Shown here: positions 9,784 to 58,596 of the stretch, piece after piece
How positions within the stretch are numbered: position 1 is the first letter of the stretch
Layout of the letters: every line of letters begins with the position of its first letter
Assembly: GCA_009926305.1 (NCBI GenBank)
Contig: RFPC01000003.1
Location: 17,992-81,991, forward strand
Reading direction: 5' to 3'
Source: a bacterium
GTDB lineage: Bacteria; Bdellovibrionota_C; UBA2361; RFPC01
Length of the DNA: 64,000 nt
The notes under the pieces: generated by a model
What the model was told of the DNA's origin: nothing
What the model saw: the letters and a program-made list of their open reading frames with translations, nothing else
Databases searched by the model: none
Position numbers and translations under genes: made by a program

Positions 9784-10899
9784 ATGAAGGAATTAACGAA
9801 AAATATTATATCGCATCTAGCACTGGTTTTCCTCGTATTAGGAATGAGCACCCCTGTAATGGCTGCTCGAGTGAAAGATATTGCTGACGTTGAGGGAGTT
9901 CGGGGTAACCAACTATACGGTTATGGAATCGTTATTGGATTAAACGGAACTGGCGACGGTATCATGGTAAACTTTACCACAAAGACGATTTCCAACCTCT
10001 TAGAGCGAGAGGGATTAAGCGTTGACGCACAGGGTCTGATGCTTCGCAATGTAGCCAGTGTCATGGTTACTGCGACTCTTCCAGCATTTGCTCGTCCTGG
10101 TAGCCGACTTGACGTTACGATCTCCTCTGTCGGGGATGCAAAAAGTCTTCAGGGCGGCACGTTGCTGATGACCCCCCTGAAGGGAGCAGATGGTAATGTT
10201 TATGCCGCTGCACAAGGAGCTGTAACCGTCGGTGGATATTCGATTGAGGCAGGCGGTGATGCAGCCATAAAAAACCATCCTACGGTAGGAAACATTTCCC
10301 TAGGAGCAACGGTAGAGCGCTCGATCCCATTTGATTTATTCCAGAGTCAGCGTATCCGAGTTGTTCTTCGTTCCGCCGATTTTACCACGATGACCCGGTT
10401 AGTAGATCGAATTAATAGCGAACTGGGTCGGCCTATTGCAGTAGCAGTTGATAGTGCGAGCGTAGAGATACCACTGATTGATGAGTATCGAGTGGATCCT
10501 ATTGGATTCGTGGCAAAGATAGAACAGTTGGCTATTGATACTGACATTCCAGCAAGAGTGGTGATTAATGAGAAGACGGGGACAATAGTCATGGGAGAAA
10601 GTGTGACAGTAAGTACGGTAGCCTTAGCCCATGGGAATTTAAGTATTGCTATTCGCGCTGAGAATCAGGTGTCCCAGCCAGGAGCGCTTGCTGAAGCTGG
10701 TGAAACTGAAGTGGTGACAAATACAGATATAACAGTGGGAGAAGAACAATCTGGATTGAGTATAGTAGGAGGAGAGGTCACGTTAGGGGAATTAGTGAAT
10801 GCCCTCAATTCATTAGGGGCTACGCCTAGAGACCTGATCTCGATTTTTACGGCTCTACAGCGCTCTGGGGCATTAAGGGCCGATCTTGTGATTATGTAA
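9784..10899 (+). CDS. flgI: flagellar P-ring protein FlgI
   Basis: Signal peptide, then VRGNQLYGYGIVIGLNGTGD and a C-terminal LNSLGATPRDLISIF. Confidence 0.9.
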   Translation: MKELTKNIISHLALVFLVLGMSTPVMAARVKDIADVEGVRGNQLYGYGIVIGLNGTGDGIMVNFTTKTISNLLEREGLSVDAQGLMLRNVASVMVTATLPAFARPGSRLDVTISSVGDAKSLQGGTLLMTPLKGADGNVYAAAQGAVTVGGYSIEAGGDAAIKNHPTVGNISLGATVERSIPFDLFQSQRIRVVLRSADFTTMTRLVDRINSELGRPIAVAVDSASVEIPLIDEYRVDPIGFVAKIEQLAIDTDIPARVVINEKTGTIVMGESVTVSTVALAHGNLSIAIRAENQVSQPGALAEAGETEVVTNTDITVGEEQSGLSIVGGEVTLGELVNALNSLGATPRDLISIFTALQRSGALRADLVIM

Positions 10900-37982: not shown

Positions 37983-39098
37983 ATGAGAAAGCTGACGGAA
38001 CTTTCTGTTGATGAAATAGCGAATTTTCATTCGACCTTAAATCAATTCTCTCTCGGCGGAGAAGTGAAAAGAATGTTTCGACTCTATCAGGGACATTTGC
38101 ATGAAACGTATGTCAGTGAAGTCCGCGTGGGTGAAAATACGAAGAAATATCTCCATCAAAAGATCAATACCACAGCGTTTGAGAATCCTGAACTCATGTT
38201 ATCCAACATCCAACGAATTTCTAAAGTGCTTAAAATGCATCCAGAACGAGAGTTTTCTGATTCTCTTACTTTGATTCCGACTGTTGATGATGAGCCCTAT
38301 CACTCTGATGGAAAGTTGTATTGGAGAACCTACAACTTTGTAGAAGATAGTATTTCCTATGACATCTGCCCCAATGATTCAAAGGGGTATGCTTTGGGGA
38401 ATGCGACAGGGGAGTTTTTGTATCTTCTCTCTGAGATGCCGTGCTCTGAAATCTATGATTACTCCCCAGATTTTCAGGACACATTCCGTAGATGGAGCGA
38501 GTTGCAAGAGGCTCTCAGTCAGGGGGTCCCCGAAAGGCTACAAACATCGAAATGTCTGTATGAGGAGATGCGGTCATTTGAGGAAGACGCACTTCAAATT
38601 CATAAGGCAGTCAAGGGGGGCAAACTGCGACAGCAAATTATCCACGGGGATACAAAAACAAATAACTTTCTCTTTCGGGAGAACTCTGACGAGGTGTTGT
38701 GTCTTGTTGATATAGATCTCTGTATGCCAGCAACACCACTATATGATATTGGAGATCTCCTGCGCAGTGCCTCGGCAGTCGGTCGTGAAGATGAGAGAGA
38801 CCTCTCACAGGTTGGGGTTGATAGCGGTATTATGGAGGCGGTGTTACGGGGGTTTTTATCCTCTCGTTTCGAGTTAACAGATGCCGAGAAATCACTCCTC
38901 TCATTTGCAGGCTTTACGGTTAGCTTTAATTTGACTGCCCGATTTTTGGCGGATTACTTGCGGGGCGATGTCTACTTTCCAGTGACTCGGCCAAATCATA
39001 ATCTTGAGCGGGCCCTTGCTCAATGGCGGGTAACAACCTGTCTGCACTCTTTTCGGTATGTTATTGAGGATCTTGTTGCATCCGCCCCACATTGTTGA
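37983..39098 (+). CDS. aminoglycoside-phosphotransferase-fold kinase (APH/choline-kinase/HSK-II-like)
   Basis: Brenner motif IHGDTKTNNFLF and LVDIDLCMP (DxD) in the catalytic and activation loops. Confidence 0.55.
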   Translation: MRKLTELSVDEIANFHSTLNQFSLGGEVKRMFRLYQGHLHETYVSEVRVGENTKKYLHQKINTTAFENPELMLSNIQRISKVLKMHPEREFSDSLTLIPTVDDEPYHSDGKLYWRTYNFVEDSISYDICPNDSKGYALGNATGEFLYLLSEMPCSEIYDYSPDFQDTFRRWSELQEALSQGVPERLQTSKCLYEEMRSFEEDALQIHKAVKGGKLRQQIIHGDTKTNNFLFRENSDEVLCLVDIDLCMPATPLYDIGDLLRSASAVGREDERDLSQVGVDSGIMEAVLRGFLSSRFELTDAEKSLLSFAGFTVSFNLTARFLADYLRGDVYFPVTRPNHNLERALAQWRVTTCLHSFRYVIEDLVASAPHC

Positions 39099-44947: not shown

Positions 44948-45466
44948 ATGACTGATATGATCGAGCCAATGGATGCCTATGAAATAATGAAGAATGATAC
45001 GAGTTGTCAGATTATTGATGTTCGAGAACCAGCTGAATTCCGGAGTTGCCATATTATAGGTGCTCGTAATATTCCACTGAGTAAACTTGAAAGTGGAGAC
45101 GAAGTTCTTGCAGGAGAAGGAAAACTCCTAATTTGTTGTCAACGAGGAATGCGAGCTGAACGAGCGTGTCAGATAGTTCGTGGAACAGCTGCTGAGACTG
45201 AAATGAGTGTCATAAGAGGCGGCCTGAACGAGTGGAAACAGAATGGCCTTCCTGTAGAAGAGGATTCCTCCGCGCCTATCGCTATGGAACGACAGGTGCA
45301 AATTGTTGCAGGTTCTTTAGTTGTCTTGGGTATTCTTCTTGGGGTTTTTGTCAATCAGTGGTTTCTCGCTCTTTCTGCATTTGTGGGATGTGGATTGGTT
45401 TTTGCTGGCGTAACAAACACGTGCGGAATGGCTATGCTCTTAAGGCGACTGCCTTATAACCATTAA
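44948..45466 (+). CDS. rhodanese-domain protein with C-terminal membrane anchor (YgaP-like)
   Basis: Rhodanese active-site loop LLICCQRGMRAE and a C-terminal hydrophobic DUF2892-like segment. Confidence 0.65.
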   Translation: MTDMIEPMDAYEIMKNDTSCQIIDVREPAEFRSCHIIGARNIPLSKLESGDEVLAGEGKLLICCQRGMRAERACQIVRGTAAETEMSVIRGGLNEWKQNGLPVEEDSSAPIAMERQVQIVAGSLVVLGILLGVFVNQWFLALSAFVGCGLVFAGVTNTCGMAMLLRRLPYNH

Positions 45467-45560: not shown

Positions 45561-46172
45561 TTAAAGGTCTGGTGCACTGAGGGGTATCCAGCCCTCATCT
45601 TTGGCGTTATGAGCCATAATGGAGCTACTTTCAATGTCGTATATCCAGCCATGAAGGCAGAGCTCTTTACTTTCAATGCGCCCGCTAATGAAGTCGTATT
45701 GATTCAGGTGGTTGAGCTGATTGATTACATTTTGCCGGATGTGAGCTTCAAGACTGCCATCCTCATCAATATCAAAGTCTGATGAAGATTGGACAATCCA
45801 ATCATGAAGATGAGGAAGAGACTCTAATTTCTCAGGATTCAGCATCCCTTTCACTGCACCGCAATCAGAGTGTCCACAAACAATAATATGTTTAACACCG
45901 AGAACACTCACGGCAAATTCTATGGTGCCAATATCCCCGAGGTTGGCGTTGCTGCAACAGGGAACGATATTTCCCGCATTACGGATAGTGAAGACTTCAC
46001 CTGGCTTGTGCTGCAGGAATAGCTCAGGACTCACTCTTGAATCGGAACAGGTAATCAATAAAATCTCAGGCGCTTGCCCTTTCGCTAGTTCAACAAATTC
46101 TTCTTTCAGTTTTGGGTGCTCGTTTTCCAAGAAAGCGTGATGTCCTTTTACCAATTTTTTCATTGAATCCAT
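45561..46172 (-). CDS. beta-class carbonic anhydrase
   Basis: Zn ligands in ITCSDSRVSPE and HSDCGAVKG. Confidence 0.85.
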   Translation of the reverse strand: MDSMKKLVKGHHAFLENEHPKLKEEFVELAKGQAPEILLITCSDSRVSPELFLQHKPGEVFTIRNAGNIVPCCSNANLGDIGTIEFAVSVLGVKHIIVCGHSDCGAVKGMLNPEKLESLPHLHDWIVQSSSDFDIDEDGSLEAHIRQNVINQLNHLNQYDFISGRIESKELCLHGWIYDIESSSIMAHNAKDEGWIPLSAPDL

Positions 46173-46211: not shown

Positions 46212-47795
46212 TTATGCCGTGTGAAGCTCTATACTTGAATTTTGTCTATCCACTTCGCTGTTTAGGCTTTTGCGGGAAATTGGTTTCGACGAATTGGCAT
46301 AGTGATGCAGTTGATCCCACTCGAGATAAACTTTGCCCCCGGACTTCTCGTGTTGGTCTCCCCACTGCGTGAGTAGCTCCAAGCATGCGTGATCGATATA
46401 AGCGAGGTGGTGAAGGTGAACATGTAGTATCGCATCTGAAGGGATTTTTTCGAGAGTCTTTGCTAACGATGGGATACTGAGAAATGTTGCTGCTCCAACG
46501 AGTTCTAGGTTCAGTTCACTTCCCCCCTCTTCTGAAGTAAATACCTCAGCCTCAAGATGGGTCAGGCGGTAGAGAAGTTGGAACAGAGTAGCAGAGAAAC
46601 CGATGACTATACCCGTCAGGAGGTCGAAGGTGACAATTGATGCCACGGTCAAAACGAAAATCAAGACCTCCTCGCGCCCTTTTTCTCTCAGCTCTTCAAT
46701 AATTGCGATGTTAATCAGCTTCCATCCAATTACTACAAGGAGAGCAGCGAGGCTGGAGGTTGGTATAAAATTGAGGAGATTTGGAAGAAGCAATATGAAA
46801 GCGAGCAACCAGACACCGTGTAGGGTTGCTGACCATCTCGTCTTTGCACCCGCCCGTACGTTGGCAGAGCTTCTGACAATAACTCCCGTCATCGGAAGTG
46901 CTCCAAGGATCCCGCATAAGGTGTTCCCTATTCCCTGTGCGAGGAGTTCTCGATTATAGTCTGTGCGTACACCAGAATGAAGTTTATCAACGGCGGCAGC
47001 ACAAAGCAGGGTCTCGGCACTGGCAACAATTGCGATGCTAATTGCAAGAACCAGTAAACCGGGAGTCAGCAGTAATTCTAATGCTTGTTCTGTTGGAAGG
47101 ATCTCTACACTTCCAAGGAGGGAGTCTGGAATTTCTACGAACTTAACGCGGAGTGATGCTACTGATGCTAAGAGAGAGCCTCCGAAAACACCAATTAAGG
47201 CTCCTGGCACAAATTCAAAAGGTGGCTTTTTGATGCGGTCCCAGCCGGCTACAAGAAGAATGGTTACTATTCCGACCAGTGCCGCATCTGAAACTCCCCC
47301 TGTGCTAGGCCAGACGACTTTCCAAAAGGCCTCTGGAATGCCACTCAAATTATCAAGACCGCTTGCCCGAGGAGTAGCATCGAGCATGACATGAAATTGC
47401 GAACCAAAAATAAGAACTCCGATGCCAGACAGCATTCCATAGATAACGGTTGGGGACACCGCCCGAAAGATTTGCCCGCCGCCAAGCAGTCCAGCACCAA
47501 ACTGAAGTAGACCCGCCAACGCAACAGCAATTCCCAGTCCGAAAACTCCGAACTGTTCTACTACTTGCCAAACGATCACCACCAATCCCGCAGCTGGTCC
47601 GCTGACTTGCAATGGGCTTCCGGCAATCGGTCCAAGGATGATACCACCAATAATGCCAGTGATGAGACCCTTCTCTGGTGAGAGTCCAGAAGCGATGGCT
47701 ATTCCCATGCAGAGCGGTAAAGCGACAAGGAAGACGACGAAAGACGCCATGATTTCATTGATTGAAGAGATTTTATTGGGGGAAGATTTTTGCAT
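46212..47795 (-). CDS. SulP-family anion (sulfate/bicarbonate) transporter with C-terminal STAS domain
   Basis: A multi-TM core plus a C-terminal STAS domain. Co-oriented with and immediately upstream of the beta-CA gene. Confidence 0.8.
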   Translation of the reverse strand: MQKSSPNKISSINEIMASFVVFLVALPLCMGIAIASGLSPEKGLITGIIGGIILGPIAGSPLQVSGPAAGLVVIVWQVVEQFGVFGLGIAVALAGLLQFGAGLLGGGQIFRAVSPTVIYGMLSGIGVLIFGSQFHVMLDATPRASGLDNLSGIPEAFWKVVWPSTGGVSDAALVGIVTILLVAGWDRIKKPPFEFVPGALIGVFGGSLLASVASLRVKFVEIPDSLLGSVEILPTEQALELLLTPGLLVLAISIAIVASAETLLCAAAVDKLHSGVRTDYNRELLAQGIGNTLCGILGALPMTGVIVRSSANVRAGAKTRWSATLHGVWLLAFILLLPNLLNFIPTSSLAALLVVIGWKLINIAIIEELREKGREEVLIFVLTVASIVTFDLLTGIVIGFSATLFQLLYRLTHLEAEVFTSEEGGSELNLELVGAATFLSIPSLAKTLEKIPSDAILHVHLHHLAYIDHACLELLTQWGDQHEKSGGKVYLEWDQLHHYANSSKPISRKSLNSEVDRQNSSIELHTA

Positions 47796-47947: not shown

Positions 47948-48340
47948 TTATTCGTCGTTTTTACCCCATACTTTAAGAGCCTGTTCTACCGCTTTATCAA
48001 AAGTTGGTGAACCAATTACTCCAAGTTCCGTAAATCGCAATCCCTCTAAAATCCAATTTGCAACGTTTGGTTCCACGAGGCTGTAAAAGTGGTGTTTTCC
48101 TTCTCTGCGCTCGTGAACAATTCGGAGGCTTCTAAACAACGCGAGATGCTGCGATACGCGAGAGGATGAAATTTCTAACGTCTCAGAAAGCCCCTGAACA
48201 TCACATTCCGCACGACCAAGTTCTTCAACCATCCGAATTCTATCAGGATGAGAAAATGCATTAAACAACTTAGCGAGCTCTTGGGCTACTACCTTACGGT
48301 CTCCCATACACCAATCCCATACGATTATCTTCCCCTCCAC
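47948..48340 (-). CDS. ArsR/SmtB-family transcriptional regulator
   Basis: ELAKLFNAFSHPDRIRMVEELGRAECDVQGLSETLEISSSRVSQHLALFRSLRIV. Confidence 0.7.
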   Translation of the reverse strand: MEGKIIVWDWCMGDRKVVAQELAKLFNAFSHPDRIRMVEELGRAECDVQGLSETLEISSSRVSQHLALFRSLRIVHERREGKHHFYSLVEPNVANWILEGLRFTELGVIGSPTFDKAVEQALKVWGKNDE

Positions 48341-48454
48341 TATAGAAACTCAGTAGAACTTATGAAAACCTTAAAAGTACTTTTCTCGCAAATTAACTCA
48401 CAAATCAGAGATTGAGCTATTTGAAGCTGGACTTTGTAAGGGGAAGTTGATATC

Positions 48455-48552
48455 ACCTCCCAGACTCTGGGGAGGCGTTATTGCCTGAGAATCCAATGCT
48501 CTATTGGTAAACCCGTAGAACCTGATTCGGCTAGTACCGACGTAGGGAGGCA
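48455..48552 (+). promoter_or_regulatory. TPP (THI-box) riboswitch
   Basis: ggggaggcg...CTGAGA...ACCCGTAGAACCTGATTCGGCTAGTACCGACGTAGGGAgg matches the THI-element core (CUGAGA, ACCUGAUCUGGNUAAUACCAGCGUAGGGA). The 3' P1 strand contains GGGAGG, which is the Shine-Dalgarno for the ATG at 48555. Confidence 0.75.
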
Positions 48553-48554
48553 AG

Positions 48555-50897
48555 ATGTCGCAGTGTAATTCAAAGATCTGTAAGTCAAAAGCAGCGCAAG
48601 AATTTCTAATCCGAGAGACTACGCCCTGTATCGACGGTTCTTCTCACGGATTTCGAAGCAGCCAGTTCGGAACGCTCGATAGAACCCGATTGCTTGCCGT
48701 GGGATCTTTCAAGAAGACGCTATCGCTCAGAACGTATCATCATTTTGCGTTCCTTTCCGCCTATTTTGTCTGCCTTGCCGTCGTTTTATTCGCAGCTGAA
48801 GTCTACGCTGCAGACCAAGGCAGTAAATCTCAAAGCAGTGAATCTTCGGAGCAGAGGGATAATAGCCCTTCGGTTTCAGGTTTAGAATCACTCAATGCGA
48901 TAACTGAGCGAGCGATAATCGTTAAGGGGACCCCGCTGAGTGAATCACTCCAAACCTACTCTGGGAGTGTTAGTTTGATTCAAGCAGATCGGCTCCAAGA
49001 GACTGGCATTGATTTTCTTCAAAACCAGATTCTTGACCTTCCTAATGTAAATTTTGCAGGAGGGAGCTCGCGACCTCGGTTTTTTCAGATACGAGGAGTT
49101 GGTGACCTAGAGCAGTATGAAGGTTTTCCGAATTCCTCTGTTGCGGTAATTGTCGATGATATTGATTTGTCAGGGGTAGGAGCTGCTCTGACTCTTTTTG
49201 ATATTGAGCAGCTTGAGGTTCATAGAGGCCCACAGCCCACACGATTTGGCTCTAGTGCTATGGCTGGTGCGATCAGTGTAACAAGTCAAGAATCAACAGA
49301 CAAACTCAATGGCACAACAGTGCTCTCTAGTGGTAGTGATCAGCTCATCTCGTTTGGATCGGCTTTGAGTGGAGCAATTACGCCTGGGGTCTCAACCCGA
49401 ATAGCGGTGTTTGGTCATCAACAAAACGGGTTCCGCCATAATGAATTTTTGTCATCAGATAGTACGAATGAACGACAAGAGTTTACAGGACGAGCAAAAT
49501 TACAAATCTCCCCGTCTGATAATGCATCCTTTACGCTGCAGGTATTGAATGTTGATTTACAGAACGGATATGACGCCTTTTCGATTTTCAATGGATTCGA
49601 GACGCAATCCGATCGACCGGGGCGTGATGAAGAAACGCTACAACTTATGTCATTGAAGGGAGAGTTGAACCTGAATTCTACCCTTAATCTTGAATTGAAC
49701 ACGAGTTACTACCGTTCTGCCCAAGAGTATTCATTTGATGGAGATTGGGGAAGCAATACATTTTGGGCACCCTTTGATCCTTATGACTACTTTTCAGATA
49801 CAGATAGGAATCGAGATGCTGCTGCTCAGCTTATTCGTCTTCGAGGAGAACAGTTTTTGGGAGGAGAGGCACTTCGATACGTGCTAGGGCTCTACTGGCA
49901 CCATCTCTCTGAGAGGACAACTACTTCAGAATTTGCTGATAATCAGCAGTATGACTACCTCAGGTCCCGTTATGCTGCTGATACATATGCAACTTTTGCT
50001 GCTATCGAGTATCCGCTTTCCGACGTCCTTCTCCTCAATTCTGGGGTGCGGTTTGAGCGCCGTGACTCTGATTTTATTGATTCGAGGGGAGCCACTTTTA
50101 CGCCTGACGATGTGATGTGGGGAGGAGATATATCACTTCGGTATACAGCGAATGAGGACTTAGTCCCTTTCATTCGAGTTGCACGAGGATTTCGAGGCGG
50201 AGGATTTAATGCAAGTCCGAGCTTGCCGAGCAATTCGATTGAATTCAAACCAGAATCGCTTATAAATTTTGAAATGGGAGCTCGTTTCAGCTTGTTTGAC
50301 GATCGTTTTACGGGAGTAGTTTCTTCATTCGTCAACTATCGAGATGACCAGCAATTAAAGCTTGCCTTACAGGTTGATCCAAGCGATCCCCTGTCTTTTA
50401 GCTATGTGACTGATAACGCTGCTAAGGGCTATAGCTATGGGGCGGAGCTTGAATCAGCTTTTCGAATTACAGATAGCCTCTCTCTACAAACCCAAATCGC
50501 CTTGCTAGATACTCGCGCAGAAGTCAATGAGGGTGTATTAAATAGCCTTGATGGACGACAGCAGTCGCATGCACCCTCGTGGCAATATGCAGCTCAGGTA
50601 GAGAAGTTTTTACGAGACACTCTTTCGGTTCAGGTTGGAATTGCTGGGCGAGATTCCTTCTATTTTGATGATAGCCATGATGCTCAATCAAAGCCATATC
50701 ACCTGCTTCACGCTTCACTCTTTTATTTTTCAGATCGATGGCGACTTCAGTTCTGGGGCAGAAATCTCACAGATGAGCATTATGCGGTGCGTGGATTTTT
50801 CTTTGGAAATGAGCCACCAGATTTCCCCAATAAAAAATATGTCCAGTTAGGTGATCCGAGAAGTTTTGGATTCACTTGGACGTACTTCTTAAGCTAA
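48555..50897 (+). CDS. TonB-dependent outer-membrane receptor (thiamine/thiamine-precursor uptake inferred)
   Basis: Plug domain (IVKGTPLSESLQTYSGSVSLIQADRLQETG) and a ~22-strand barrel. A cleavable signal peptide lies about 50 aa inside the annotated N-terminus (alternative GTG at 48699). Confidence 0.8.
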   Translation: MSQCNSKICKSKAAQEFLIRETTPCIDGSSHGFRSSQFGTLDRTRLLAVGSFKKTLSLRTYHHFAFLSAYFVCLAVVLFAAEVYAADQGSKSQSSESSEQRDNSPSVSGLESLNAITERAIIVKGTPLSESLQTYSGSVSLIQADRLQETGIDFLQNQILDLPNVNFAGGSSRPRFFQIRGVGDLEQYEGFPNSSVAVIVDDIDLSGVGAALTLFDIEQLEVHRGPQPTRFGSSAMAGAISVTSQESTDKLNGTTVLSSGSDQLISFGSALSGAITPGVSTRIAVFGHQQNGFRHNEFLSSDSTNERQEFTGRAKLQISPSDNASFTLQVLNVDLQNGYDAFSIFNGFETQSDRPGRDEETLQLMSLKGELNLNSTLNLELNTSYYRSAQEYSFDGDWGSNTFWAPFDPYDYFSDTDRNRDAAAQLIRLRGEQFLGGEALRYVLGLYWHHLSERTTTSEFADNQQYDYLRSRYAADTYATFAAIEYPLSDVLLLNSGVRFERRDSDFIDSRGATFTPDDVMWGGDISLRYTANEDLVPFIRVARGFRGGGFNASPSLPSNSIEFKPESLINFEMGARFSLFDDRFTGVVSSFVNYRDDQQLKLALQVDPSDPLSFSYVTDNAAKGYSYGAELESAFRITDSLSLQTQIALLDTRAEVNEGVLNSLDGRQQSHAPSWQYAAQVEKFLRDTLSVQVGIAGRDSFYFDDSHDAQSKPYHLLHASLFYFSDRWRLQFWGRNLTDEHYAVRGFFFGNEPPDFPNKKYVQLGDPRSFGFTWTYFLS

Positions 50898-51460
50898 TGA
50901 ATACTAGTTCTCTGATAGAGTTCGTTGCAGTCATCACAGCACTTTTTTATGTATTGCTGGCTATGCAAGAGCGACCATGGTGTTGGTTCTTCGCGATAGT
51001 AAGCAGTGTGTGTTATATCTTCGTTTTTATGGCCGCTGAGTTGTTTACCGAGGCGATGCTTCAATTTTTCTTTATCGGAATATCGATACAGGGATTCTTC
51101 TTATGGCAAGGAGGGCAGAAGCAACAGGCTCCGTCTATTCACTTTGGATCGAGAATCAGGAACATACAAGGAGTTCTGCTATGTCTAGTATTGACGGTCT
51201 CTTTGGGAGAGTTTACACGGCGGTATACCGGCGCATCGCTGGCGTATCCAGATGCAGCAATTACAATTTTTAGTATTTATGCCACTTTCCTGGCAAAGGA
51301 TAAGCGAATTGAGAACTGGCTGTATTGGGTTATTATTGATAGCGGAGCTGTTGTTCTCTACGGGGTTAAGGAATTATATCTTACCGCAGTGCTCTTTGGT
51401 TTGTATGTGTTTTTGGCCCTTTTGGGATTCTATCAATGGAAAAAAAAGTTAACGATATAA
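50876..51460 (+). CDS. PnuC-family vitamin transporter (PnuT-like)
   Basis: 194 aa with 6-7 TM helices and aromatic-rich loops typical of PnuC. Overlaps the 3' end of the TonB-dependent receptor gene (in a different frame). Confidence 0.6.
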   Translation: MDVLLKLMNTSSLIEFVAVITALFYVLLAMQERPWCWFFAIVSSVCYIFVFMAAELFTEAMLQFFFIGISIQGFFLWQGGQKQQAPSIHFGSRIRNIQGVLLCLVLTVSLGEFTRRYTGASLAYPDAAITIFSIYATFLAKDKRIENWLYWVIIDSGAVVLYGVKELYLTAVLFGLYVFLALLGFYQWKKKLTI

Positions 51461-52149
51461 CCCGTCGGCACTCCGCACTGCTGGTGTTAAATGGAGAATT
51501 CCCAGATAGTGCGCTATTCGACGCGCTTCTTGAGCATCATTCTCTCATTATCTGCGCAGACGGAGCTGCGAATATCCTATTGAATATGGGATTTTGGCCA
51601 GAAGTCATTATTGGAGACCTTGACTCAGTCGAAATTCCTGCTGGCAAAGAGATAGCTCGTGGGACAATAGTCATAGAGAATGGCGATCAGTATAGTACTG
51701 ATTTTGAAAAAGCACTTTTATATCTCTCTGACAAAGGTTTTAAGGAAATTTCTATTGTAGGCCTGAAAGGGGGGCGATTCGATCACCAAATTACAAACCT
51801 AAGTATTCTTTGTCAGTTCAGTTCTGAGTTTAACTTTAGGCTCTTCGATAATGATGGTATCGGTTATGTGCTGACTGATAGCAAGAGCTCTATGACGACT
51901 AACATGCCAGCGAATACAGTGATTTCTCTTCTTCCACTGACAAAAGTAACTGGTATTCAGACGAGACGACTAAAATATCCACTCGATAACGAAGCGCTAC
52001 AGTTCGGAGATAGGAATGGACAGAGTAATGCTAGTCTTGGTGGGGAAATCTCTATTTCACTCAAAAGTGGAAGTTTGATTTGTTATATTCTGATGCCCTC
52101 CTGGTGGACTCAACGAGAGATGTATTCAAAGCTCATAAATTGTTACTGA
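51436..52149 (+). CDS. thiamine pyrophosphokinase
   Basis: LVLNGEFPD...IICADGAANILL...IIGDLDS match the TPK catalytic-domain motifs. A thiamine-binding C-terminal domain follows. Confidence 0.7.
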   Translation: MEKKVNDITRRHSALLVLNGEFPDSALFDALLEHHSLIICADGAANILLNMGFWPEVIIGDLDSVEIPAGKEIARGTIVIENGDQYSTDFEKALLYLSDKGFKEISIVGLKGGRFDHQITNLSILCQFSSEFNFRLFDNDGIGYVLTDSKSSMTTNMPANTVISLLPLTKVTGIQTRRLKYPLDNEALQFGDRNGQSNASLGGEISISLKSGSLICYILMPSWWTQREMYSKLINCY

Positions 52150-52274: not shown

Positions 52275-52922
52275 ATGAGGATCGTGTTCATAGGTTTTAG
52301 CAATGTCGGGAAATCATATTGGTCTAAAAAGTTGGAAGATGAATTGGGCTATACTCGAGTGTGTTGTGATGATCTTATAGAGCAAGGCTTGGTTGGAGCG
52401 CTTCCTCAAGATGCTCAAGGGGTAGGGGCAGTTGCTCAGTGGCTTGGCCATCCTCACCAGGTTGGCTATACGAAAAGAGAAGCGCTGTATCTTCAGCAGG
52501 AGGAGCAGGTACTGGAGTCTTTTCTGAACAGCGACTTTCACTTGTTAGACGAGAATTTTGTGTTCGATACAACTGGAAGTGTTGTCTATTGTTCGAAAGA
52601 GATGCAAGACCGTCTACATGAAATAGGTATCATAGTATATGTACGGGCTGATACCGTGATGCGACAAGAGTTGCTGAGTCGTTTTTTCGTCGAGCCGAAG
52701 CCCCTTATCTGGGGTAATATTTTTAGCCAAGAAGTGCTGAATCAAGGAAAAAATGAAGGTGAAATCCTCGAGCGTCTTAAGGAGGCATTTCCAGAGCTGA
52801 TTCGCTTTCGAGAGGAAAAATATGAAGAGCTGGCTGATGTAATAGTAAATGCCTCTGATATTCGTCGCACGTGCATGAGTGCGGAGGAGCTGCTTCTAAA
52901 AATTAGAGAGGCGCAATCATAA
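52275..52922 (+). CDS. P-loop NTPase / small-molecule kinase (shikimate-kinase-like fold)
   Basis: Walker A IVFIGFSNVGKSYWSKKL followed by DDLIE. Confidence 0.45.
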   Translation: MRIVFIGFSNVGKSYWSKKLEDELGYTRVCCDDLIEQGLVGALPQDAQGVGAVAQWLGHPHQVGYTKREALYLQQEEQVLESFLNSDFHLLDENFVFDTTGSVVYCSKEMQDRLHEIGIIVYVRADTVMRQELLSRFFVEPKPLIWGNIFSQEVLNQGKNEGEILERLKEAFPELIRFREEKYEELADVIVNASDIRRTCMSAEELLLKIREAQS

Positions 52923-56741: not shown

Positions 56742-57530
56742 GTGCTGAAACGTCATCGGAAAAAATATGATCAACACTTTCTGGGAGGAATACTTCTTGG
56801 TTTTTCATTTCTGGGAATCGCCGCCTTTCTATCGGGCGGGGTGCTCAATTTTTTCAGCATTTCTGCGTTCTTTGTCGTAATTGGCGGAACACTTGCTGCG
56901 GCTATAGTGCAATATCCAGCCGTAGTTTTTGAGAGTGCTGGCAAAGAGATTAAGAGCATGCTTTATGCTAAGTCAGAGCATTCCCTGGAGGAGCGATATG
57001 GCTATCTTCAAAAGCTCTCGCGACTTGTTAAAGAGAAGGGATTAGTTGTTTTAGACCGTGAATCACAGCGCTGTAGTGATTCTTTCCTACGACTGGCTCT
57101 AGAGTTAAGTTCAGATCGAACCTCTCCAAAACAAATTCAACGAATTATGAGTCATGAGATCGCCAGTTCATATCAACGAGGGATGCAGGTCGTTTCGTTG
57201 TTAGAAACTATGGCTTCCATTGCTCCCGCCATGGGACTGATTGGAACCGTTATTGGTCTCATTAATATGTTTCAAACGATTACAGATATCTCAAGTGTTA
57301 GTACGGGGCTGTCTGTTGCGCTTTTGACGACACTTTATGGCGCGGTGGTGGCGAATCTCATTTTTGCACCGCTTGCTGGTAAATTGTCTGAAAAAGAAGA
57401 AGAAAGGGCTCGAATAAAGCGAATTACACTCGAAGGGATACTGAGTTTGTCACAGGAAGAAAGCCCAATTCTCTTTGAGCAGAGATTGAGAAGTTTTCGA
57501 ATGACTGAATTGACAGGAACGACAAATTGA
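56742..57530 (+). CDS. motA: flagellar motor stator protein MotA (MotA/TolQ/ExbB family), GTG start
   Basis: C-terminal ALLTTLYGAVVANLIFAPLAGKL and four TM helices. Confidence 0.8.
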   Translation: MLKRHRKKYDQHFLGGILLGFSFLGIAAFLSGGVLNFFSISAFFVVIGGTLAAAIVQYPAVVFESAGKEIKSMLYAKSEHSLEERYGYLQKLSRLVKEKGLVVLDRESQRCSDSFLRLALELSSDRTSPKQIQRIMSHEIASSYQRGMQVVSLLETMASIAPAMGLIGTVIGLINMFQTITDISSVSTGLSVALLTTLYGAVVANLIFAPLAGKLSEKEEERARIKRITLEGILSLSQEESPILFEQRLRSFRMTELTGTTN

Positions 57531-58057
57531 CATCTTTTCCAAATAGACATCGAGATGTTGTGCGACGGAAGAAAGTAAAAGGTGAGAGATTTCTCTACCT
57601 ATATCTCTCTGTAATGCTCGCAGTATTTTCTGTTTTATTTGTGGCCGATATATGTTCAAAAATTGGTGTAACGACCTTTCCTAAATCCGAGCTAGCCACG
57701 TATCGTTCCCCAAATTATGAAGAGCTCGATAAGTATTTACGTTCAACATCGAAAGTCTTATTCAAAGACACTATTGAAATCTTTGATGCGAAAAGTACTC
57801 ATTTTAGAGAGGGGGGATTAGAAGCGCTCAATTTCATCCTTCAATCTCATGATATGCATGCACGCATACTTGTCATTGGAGATCTAGAGGATTATGAGCT
57901 GTATTACGGAAGAGCTTTACTGCTTCAATCAGCATTGGAAGAGTTCTCTCTCGATGTTCAGGATGTTCGCATTGAGCTGGAGTTTGCTCCTAACAGTCGC
58001 GAGCAGATAGTTGTTACCCTCTATGAAGGGGCTTCGCCCAGTGGAGAGACTATATGA
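57527..58057 (+). CDS. short membrane-anchored protein with degenerate OmpA/MotB-like C-terminal region
   Basis: TM RFLYLYLSVMLAVFSVLFVA, then ARILVIGDLED ... VQDVRIELEF reminiscent of the OmpA-like fold. ATGA overlaps with both neighbouring genes. Confidence 0.35.
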   Translation: MTSFPNRHRDVVRRKKVKGERFLYLYLSVMLAVFSVLFVADICSKIGVTTFPKSELATYRSPNYEELDKYLRSTSKVLFKDTIEIFDAKSTHFREGGLEALNFILQSHDMHARILVIGDLEDYELYYGRALLLQSALEEFSLDVQDVRIELEFAPNSREQIVVTLYEGASPSGETI

Positions 58058-58596
58058 ATTCAAGTACTTGGCTGATTTCGCTGGCCGATCTTTTAACCCT
58101 TCTTCTTGCGGCTGTGATTATGGGATGGTGCCTTCAGGGAGAAGTCCCTGCAATCACACAAGTATCTGAAATCGCTGATAAATTACAATCTGAAGGAGTT
58201 GGTACCCATATTGCAAGGTCTTTTCCCGAAACCTCTACGAAGATGTTGCTTCTATATGAAGAGCATTTTCAGGAGGGAGGTAGGGAACTTGCGGAATTAT
58301 TAAAAAGTCTACGTGCGAGTTCAGATAAGTGTTTGGAATCGTGCACTTTGCTGATTGAGGTTTCGGCTTGTGCCGAAGATTCTGGAGGGCATGTTACAGA
58401 AGTAAGACATGCGGCCCTTGAGAGGTTACTGATTATTCACCGTCACTTGTTTGACGGCAATGGTGTCAGAAATGAAAGGGTGAGGCTGGCGTCTATGGGA
58501 ACGGAGTGCAGGGCTCTGAGATTCTCAGAGGGTGGTCAGCCAGCTAATTCTCCAGTAGCCATAATCCGTCTTCGAAAGGTTGAAGAGAAGGGCTGA
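58054..58596 (+). CDS. motB: MotB-like stator protein, short form
   Basis: N-terminal WLISLADLLTLLLAAVIM is the MotB plug/TM signature. C-terminal HAALERLLIIHRHLFDGNGVRNERVRLASMG resembles the LSxxRAxxV...G...RI...G core of the OmpA-like PG-binding domain. At 180 aa it is shorter than typical MotB. Confidence 0.55.
   Translation: MNSSTWLISLADLLTLLLAAVIMGWCLQGEVPAITQVSEIADKLQSEGVGTHIARSFPETSTKMLLLYEEHFQEGGRELAELLKSLRASSDKCLESCTLLIEVSACAEDSGGHVTEVRHAALERLLIIHRHLFDGNGVRNERVRLASMGTECRALRFSEGGQPANSPVAIIRLRKVEEKG

Follow-up and report, generated by a model that had tools for sequence, protein, structure and literature searches.

How might a bacterium bring thiamine across two membranes and cut that supply once its coenzyme form is plentiful? 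The question is raised by a stretch of 64,000 nucleotides (hereafter the window; contig RFPC01000003.1 of assembly GCA_009926305.1, from a Bdellovibrionota_C bacterium), in which an RNA element resembling a thiamine pyrophosphate (TPP) riboswitch stands directly in front of overlapping genes for a TonB-dependent outer-membrane receptor, a Pnu-type inner-membrane transporter and a thiamine diphosphokinase (TPK). We consider it likely that these parts form a TPP-riboswitch-controlled operon for thiamine uptake and salvage. An earlier reading made from the letters of the DNA, without database searches (the sequence-only reading), had proposed such an operon at 48455-52149, and these bounds proved accurate apart from the start codon of the Pnu gene.

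We scanned the whole window with Rfam at gathering thresholds, the check that the sequence-only reading had proposed. The sole family matched was RF00059 (TPP), at 48458-48563 on the forward strand, with 59.2 bits against a gathering score of 54.3 (E = 4.6e-9) over the full model (1-105). The THI-box core was found in the region claimed for it: the CUGAGA pyrimidine-sensor junction occupies 48485-48490 and the ACCC...AGGGA arm, ACCCGUAGAACCUGAUUCGGCUAGUACCGACGUAGGGA, occupies 48512-48548. The ligand-contacting core is present, made up of CUGAGA and the pyrophosphate-sensor arm ACCUGAU...CG.AGGGA (here AACCUGAUUCGGCUAGUACCGACGUAGGGA at 48519-48548), and the columns of both are invariant in a 70-sequence alignment of the family. 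Two metagenomic contigs, L001 and L002, whose receptors are 98% and 74% identical to that of the window, show synteny with the window and share the order ArsR gene on the reverse strand, riboswitch, receptor, Pnu, TPK and an open reading frame (ORF) of 215 amino acids (aa); their riboswitch orthologues score 59.2 and 68.1 bits, respectively. Between the window and L002 we found compensatory changes in P2 (G48475-C48484 to A-U) and in P3 (A48495-U48505 to G-C), with only two informative sequences in the window's lineage for this comparison; P1 registers vary among lineages. We conclude that, by family match and conserved core, the element is a TPP riboswitch.

The position of the ribosome-binding site within this aptamer points to how it would act. 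In the Rfam alignment, C48522 pairs with G48545 and C48521 with G48546 in P4, and C48467 pairs with G48547, U48466 with A48548 and C48465 with G48549 in P1; at the base of P1, C48551 pairs with G48463, and G48550 faces A48464 as a mismatch. All bases of the Shine-Dalgarno (SD) sequence GGGAGG fall in the 3′ strands of these helices, G48545-46 in P4 and G48547, A48548 and G48549 in P1, and the AUG at 48555 begins 3 nt beyond P1. Because the SD belongs to the aptamer's own P4 and P1 3′ strands, there is no separate expression platform here. The arrangement GGGAGG-N4-ATGTC is kept in L002, in which the ATG is in frame with the receptor, open, and 20 codons 5′ of the annotated start.

We surveyed the receptor family by scanning 185,579 species-representative genomes with an alignment of receptor homologues, which gave 80 loci, or 83 with the window, L001 and L002. 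The survey loci belong mostly to Gammaproteobacteria (Woeseiaceae, Steroidobacteraceae, Shewanella and Ferrimonas), with others from Bdellovibrionota and one from Kiritimatiellales; the best receptor match in the species-representative genomes, at 42% identity, is to metagenome-assembled genomes (MAGs) of Bdellovibrionota. A THI-box pattern lies directly 5′ of the receptor gene in 76 of the 83 loci. Rfam was positive in 11 of 14 further loci tested, including three of the seven missed by the pattern search, so that 79 of 83 loci are riboswitch-linked and the family is almost always tied to a TPP riboswitch; two of the four loci still lacking one are on contigs that end upstream. A Pnu gene lies downstream in about 70 of the 83 loci, and TPK was found by tblastn in L001 and L002 only. 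Among 73 non-duplicate riboswitch-bearing loci, 46 have an in-frame, open start codon 4-14 nt past the 3′ AGG of the aptamer, for which a rough chance expectation is about 5%. The distance has its mode at 9-10 nt (24 loci) and is 9 nt in the window, and most of the 46 loci encode a signal peptide directly at the protein start. In 27 of 76 loci there is no aptamer-adjacent start. Shewanella-type loci (L036, L041, L042, L044, L049, L054 and L060) carry a conserved hairpin, GCCGGATCTCAAA...TTTGAGGTCC, about 60-100 nt past the aptamer and ending at a start codon 57-125 nt downstream of it, which is a different expression platform. Direct occlusion of an aptamer-embedded SD, free of any added platform, appears to be the majority design in the receptor family. 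The sequence-only reading had taken GGGAGG as the SD for ATG 48555, which the modal family distance and the conservation in L002 support, and had proposed translational control by SD sequestration; this is supported in the form of probable direct occlusion, as the SD lies inside the P4 and P1 helices, with the caveat that P1 is weak.

The identities of the three downstream genes agree with those first proposed. The receptor matches the Plug (PF07715, 48.5 bits) and β-barrel (PF00593, 100.1 bits) families, its AlphaFold2 (AF2) model (mean pLDDT 80) has a plug and a strand-rich barrel, and its closest solved fold in a Foldseek search is the yersiniabactin receptor FyuA (4EPA; TM 0.88, E = 2.7e-37, 20% identity). 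Its segment ERAIIVKG aligns with EEIVVTA of homologues at the putative TonB-box position. The same protein is deposited at NCBI as NBW39599.1 under the label 'hypothetical protein'. For the Pnu gene the most likely start is ATG 50897, rather than TTG 50876 as in a mechanical ORF list; the ATG overlaps the receptor stop codon as TAATG, and gene callers chose the same start on related contigs. Its product is 36% identical (E = 5e-39) to the Pnu protein of the riboswitch operon of Shewanella canadensis, the orthologue used here in place of the characterised S. woodyi protein. It has the motif W141xxW144xxxD148 and the gate tryptophans W70 and W181 (motif as in PMC5749112), and the motif aspartate is needed for thiamine binding in S. 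woodyi PnuT (PMC5749112). The kinase scores 151.1 bits against the TIGR01378 equivalog model (cutoff 76.4), 96.6 bits against PF04263 and 45.3 bits against PF04265, and its start codon lies within the Pnu gene, giving an overlap of 25 nt. No family of thiamine biosynthesis turned up when about 60 non-overlapping ORFs spread over the window were scanned with Pfam, which bears out a further claim of the sequence-only reading.

Features of the predicted thiamine operon and its control region (window positions)
Feature	Coordinates	Strand	Basis and details
Promoter-like region (putative)	48428..48456	+	TGGACT at 48428-33, 17-nt spacer, TGnTATCAC extended -10 at 48448-56
TPP riboswitch (THI element)	48458..48563	+	Rfam RF00059; aptamer core P1-P5 at 48463-48551
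Predicted Shine-Dalgarno and start codon	48545..48557	+	GGGAGG at 48545-48550, spacer CAAG, ATG at 48555-48557; Rfam alignment, conservation in L002, family start distance
N-terminal pre-sequence (predicted)	48555..48809	+	Hydropathy and AF2; spacer residues 1-59, signal-peptide core at about 63-80, likely cleavage between VYA and A after residue 85
TonB-dependent outer-membrane receptor, 780 aa; predicted thiamine receptor	48555..50897	+	Pfam Plug and TonB_dep_Rec_b-barrel; AF2; Foldseek
PnuT-type Pnu facilitator, 187 aa	50897..51460	+	PF04973, 154 bits; motif; similarity to Shewanella
Thiamine diphosphokinase (TPK, Tnr3/THI80 type), 237 aa	51436..52149	+	TIGR01378, PF04263, PF04265

These parts suggest a feedback loop. 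The transcript would begin at or just before the P1 helix, at about 48462. When TPP is high, the bound aptamer would have its P4/P5 and P1 helices stabilised; their 3′ strands are the SD itself and the last helix ends just short of the start codon, so the 30S subunit would be excluded and the receptor would go untranslated. The Pnu and TPK genes, through their overlaps with the gene before them, would rely on upstream translation, and all three products would drop together. When TPP is low, P1 would open and the operon would be expressed: the receptor would carry thiamine over the outer membrane with TonB energy, PnuT would let it diffuse across the inner membrane, and TPK would trap it by direct conversion to TPP, closing the loop. 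PnuT is described as a thiamine facilitator that works with metabolic trapping (PMC5749112). The route from outer membrane to inner membrane to phosphorylation, already outlined in the sequence-only reading, matches this description and the published OMthi-pnuT-tnr3 systems (PMC5613172).

The proposed transcription start, probably at about 48462-48464, comes from a promoter reading of 48428-48456. The boxes GCTGGAC and AAGTTGATA (48426-48456) are shared by the window and L002 amid diverged upstream DNA, and the -10 box stands 12 nt from the GGGG of the aptamer, the same distance as for the clear TATAAT boxes of gammaproteobacterial relatives; a consensus promoter scan did not list the region. 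The position of the 5′ end bears on folding. For an RNA beginning at 48430, the folding model favours alternative pairs: CCUCCC (48456-61) can bind GGGAGG of P2 or the SD, and a helix of GAUAUC-A-CCUC against GAGG-CAA-GAUGUC would span the SD together with the AUG. A start near 48462, if the putative promoter is correct, would leave the CCUCCC and GAUAUC bases outside the RNA. We rejected the upstream anti-SD CCUCCC as the main mechanism, as it is absent in L002 and probably untranscribed.

Several observations weigh against riboswitch control of a receptor begun at ATG 48555 and specific for thiamine. The spacer between SD and ATG is short, at 4 nt, and P1 in the window is weak, with four pairs and one A-G mismatch. 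When an RNA starting at 48462 was folded with ViennaRNA, P1 did not form, and the SD was about equally paired whether or not the aptamer was enforced, P1 being too weak to predict without ligand energy; a further fold gave nearly the same mean unpaired probability of the SD with P2-P5 enforced as without (0.13 against 0.14). Nearest-neighbour folding alone does not predict sequestration, and its energies are not decisive. At the protein level, residues 1-59 have AF2 pLDDT values below 50, with a helix at 56-80, and the sequence in front of the signal-peptide core is the longest among the 46 loci with an aptamer-adjacent start (core start at residue 64, against a median of 9 and a next-longest of 34). 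Eleven of the 25 substitutions that separate the window from L001 over 5.6 kb fall in 48565-48668, distributed 3/4/4 over the codon positions, and the spacer seems to evolve without amino-acid constraint. Some gene callers start the receptor at TTG 48690. No TonB or ExbBD genes were found within the 64-kb window, which implies that the energising complex is encoded elsewhere, and the receptor family has no biochemically tested thiamine-receptor orthologue. We rejected the MotA/ExbB-family gene at 56742-58596 as a Ton energiser, as it is a flagellar stator gene of the MotA/PomA type. No intrinsic terminator was found between the aptamer and the ORF, a duplex-energy test of P1 over 65 loci was too noisy (mean z = -0.29), and structured RNA was not indicated in 48552-48710 (z = +0.78).

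The N-terminal observations fit a receptor translated from an internal TTG at 48690 or GTG at 48699, which would give a signal peptide of 37-40 residues and leave 48558-48690 as a leader that is translated incidentally or not at all; in that case the riboswitch would act otherwise than by occlusion of the ribosome-binding site, for example through Rho-dependent termination or mRNA decay. The non-coding look of the strain differences and the low pLDDT of residues 1-59 favour such a start, as do the ordinary signal peptide in the annotation of the homologue P0002 (74% identity), two database versions of the receptor gene called from TTG 48690, and a chance of about 8% that a frame stays open over 48 codons. 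Neither internal codon, however, has an SD in front of it; ATG 48555 follows a perfect GGGAGG, and its distance from the aptamer is the modal one for the family. The frame is open in three haplotypes, one with a 15-nt insertion, and in L002; any use of ATG 48555 would have ribosomes read on into the receptor; and the shorter receptor calls reflect the choice of gene caller, because their contigs carry an identical leader. An internal start is thus rather unlikely in our view, and the evidence supports, without proving, ATG 48555 as the orthologous functional start, with the spacer translated. More plausible, although still doubtful, is a riboswitch acting in two ways, with translational repression followed by Rho-dependent termination or RNase attack in the long untranslated early coding region, so that control would be mainly at the mRNA level. 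This would add to SD occlusion, not exclude it. Dual action has been described for the E. coli TPP and lysC riboswitches, in the summary given in bioRxiv 10.1101/867226, and the mRNA of a Bacteroides uniformis transport operon responds to thiamine (bioRxiv 10.1101/867226); the lack of an intrinsic terminator between aptamer and ORF also fits. On the other hand, the first 300 nt of the ORF lack the C-rich, G-poor composition of Rho-loading sites, and the start-codon-adjacent TPP riboswitches of B. thetaiotaomicron altered translation only, with the mRNA level unchanged (bioRxiv 10.1101/867226).

What the receptor carries is open to similar weighing. Its ligand could be thiamine monophosphate (TMP) or TPP, stripped of phosphate in the periplasm, or else a compound related to thiamine, as TonB-dependent transporters have been implicated in TPP import by comparative genomics (in the statement of PMC7193533 that cites Rodionov 2002). 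Comparison with the PDB found no solved structure for any member of the receptor family or for any thiamine receptor, the family has no binding assay, and FyuA, the closest entry, is distant; for Shewanella, doubts have also been raised about the physiological role that PnuT plays in seawater poor in thiamine (PMC5749112). The partner proteins argue the other way: PnuT moves thiamine and its analogues, not TMP or TPP (PMC5749112), free thiamine is the substrate of TPK, and Pfam and NCBIfam scans found no pyrimidine or thiazole salvage enzyme in the operon. We therefore regard a ligand other than free thiamine as unlikely. That the Pnu protein is the nicotinamide riboside transporter PnuC, leaving only the receptor and kinase related to thiamine, is very improbable. 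The TIGR01528 model 'nicotinamide riboside transporter PnuC' does give it 85.5 bits (cutoff 42.45), but its match to the solved PnuC (4QTN) reaches only E = 0.0019, against the 36% identity to the PnuT of the Shewanella TPP-riboswitch operon. Moreover, about 70 related loci place the same Pnu subfamily behind a TPP riboswitch, and the Pnu gene overlaps those of both receptor and TPK.

With thiamine uptake under SD occlusion as the preferred reading, the only unexplained feature of the locus is the long, fast-diverging spacer between start codon and signal peptide. A pre-sequence of about 60 residues is atypical, the signal peptide itself being judged from hydropathy. The spacer contains a 15-nt tandem unit (48564-48578 and 48579-48593), of which another strain, L091, has one extra in-frame copy. 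Past the signal peptide, at 48816-48845, lies another 15-nt repeat, in which the window and L001 differ by an indel. We rejected a diversity-generating retroelement behind the hot spot of substitution, as the changes are not adenine-specific and no reverse-transcriptase family appeared in the Pfam scans. Database versions of the receptor with 735 and 740 aa, considered as a possible sign of a stop codon in the leader, were uninformative, their leader DNA being identical to that of the window. One might suppose that in this lineage a start anchored in the aptamer has become uncoupled from the signal peptide and that the expression platform includes the spacer as a working, adjustable part, an idea that we think improbable. 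If true, the spacer could set initiation efficiency or the riboswitch threshold through structure in the early coding RNA, or it could hold back Sec targeting; otherwise it would be junk that the cell tolerates.

The surroundings of the operon appear to have other roles. Divergent from the riboswitch, on the reverse strand, lie genes for an ArsR/BigR-like regulator (47948-48340), a SulP permease (46212-47795) and a β-carbonic anhydrase (45561-46172), and a rhodanese/YgaP-like protein is encoded on the forward strand at 44948-45466 in the same upstream neighbourhood, which is also kept in L002. This cluster looks sulfur- or bicarbonate-related and unrelated to thiamine. Downstream, 126 nt past TPK, the 215-aa ORF (52275-52922) encodes a P-loop, shikimate-kinase-like protein with no firm family assignment. 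Its homologues (L083-L087) stand between thrA (aspartokinase-homoserine dehydrogenase) or asd and thrC (threonine synthase) in all three contexts seen, and the protein has a weak match to the NF040667 atypical homoserine kinase model; on these two grounds we rejected it as a fourth operon member. In the window it is detached from thr genes, and it is probably a non-canonical homoserine kinase outside the thiamine system. An APH-family phosphotransferase 10 kb upstream (37983-39098; PF01636, 44.7 bits) belongs to the ThiK superfamily, has no NCBIfam assignment and shows no link to the operon. Flagellar genes dominate the window. Its FliI (flagellar ATPase) is 66% identical to a protein from a Bdellovibrionota MAG, and the next named matches are to Bdellovibrionales and Oligoflexia. 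Together with the low identity of the best receptor match, this points to a probable source among uncultured, sparsely sampled Bdellovibrionota-like bacteria.

Among known systems, the logic proposed here is also that of btuB: a cobalamin riboswitch, which senses the coenzyme made from the vitamin, represses translation of a TonB-dependent receptor for that vitamin. The two systems use different aptamer classes, vitamins and inner-membrane partners, namely the ABC system BtuCD-F in the one and, in the other, the passive facilitator PnuT backed by kinase trapping. In the E. coli thiM riboswitch, unlike that of the window, anti-SD and anti-anti-SD strands form an expression platform of their own. 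It shares with the window the aptamer class and, as outlined in bioRxiv 10.1101/867226, shows the ligand-dependent repression of translation initiation that is proposed here.

The closest counterparts are whole operons. For receptors encoded beside pnuT and behind THI elements, Rodionov et al. 2002 predicted a role in thiamine import (cited in PMC2771747 and PMC7193533). In Bacteroides, TPP riboswitches precede OMthi-pnuT-tnr3 operons, and B. thetaiotaomicron deleted for the two transporters has a severe growth defect that depends on thiamine (PMC5613172). The Bacteroidetes arrangement (BT2390 and BT2396-BT2397 in B. thetaiotaomicron, a single operon in most gut Bacteroidetes) has the same gene order, content and regulator as the window, with the riboswitch directly beside the start codon and translational control demonstrated there by reporter fusions (PMC5613172; bioRxiv 10.1101/867226). 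It is likened to the window by gene content, not by receptor orthology to BT2390; the window belongs to another phylum, its receptor is of a family found mostly in Gammaproteobacteria, and a long spacer precedes its signal peptide. Gammaproteobacterial riboswitch-receptor-PnuT operons (Shewanella, Ferrimonas, Woeseiaceae and Steroidobacteraceae) encode receptors 35-42% and PnuT proteins about 36% identical to those of the window. They too were predicted by Rodionov et al. 2002, as reported in later papers, and the S. woodyi PnuT has been characterised (PMC5749112). In these operons the riboswitch is directly upstream, and many share the aptamer-embedded SD and start codon, although in Shewanella-type members the start lies beyond a separate hairpin whereas that of the window adjoins the aptamer. 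The four operons that we inspected (L007, 6048-7682; L012, 6041-7734; L025, 6012-6254; L036, 6087-8321) differ further from the window in having a YkoF/Thiamine_BP-like protein of 80-100 aa between receptor and PnuT and, after PnuT, an APH/choline-kinase-family (ThiK-like) kinase in the place of TPK. A few kilobases downstream of the thiamine operon in L007, a Woeseiaceae MAG, we also noted a c-di-GMP-I-GGC riboswitch (9818-9922; RF03167, 67 bits against a gathering score of 59).

Since both the module and its regulatory logic are already published, the present finding is one of annotation, not discovery, and it opens no new question. It gives a confident functional annotation to three genes that would otherwise be labelled 'hypothetical protein', as the receptor is at NCBI, or 'PnuC', and the survey can help in choosing a tractable receptor with which to supply the biochemical proof that TonB-dependent thiamine uptake still lacks. 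The riboswitch-receptor-PnuT-TPK salvage module is thereby extended to an uncultured Bdellovibrionota-like lineage, and it is this lineage, together with the use of TPK as the trapping kinase beside a receptor of a mainly gammaproteobacterial family and the long, variable spacer, that distinguishes the window from the systems known before.

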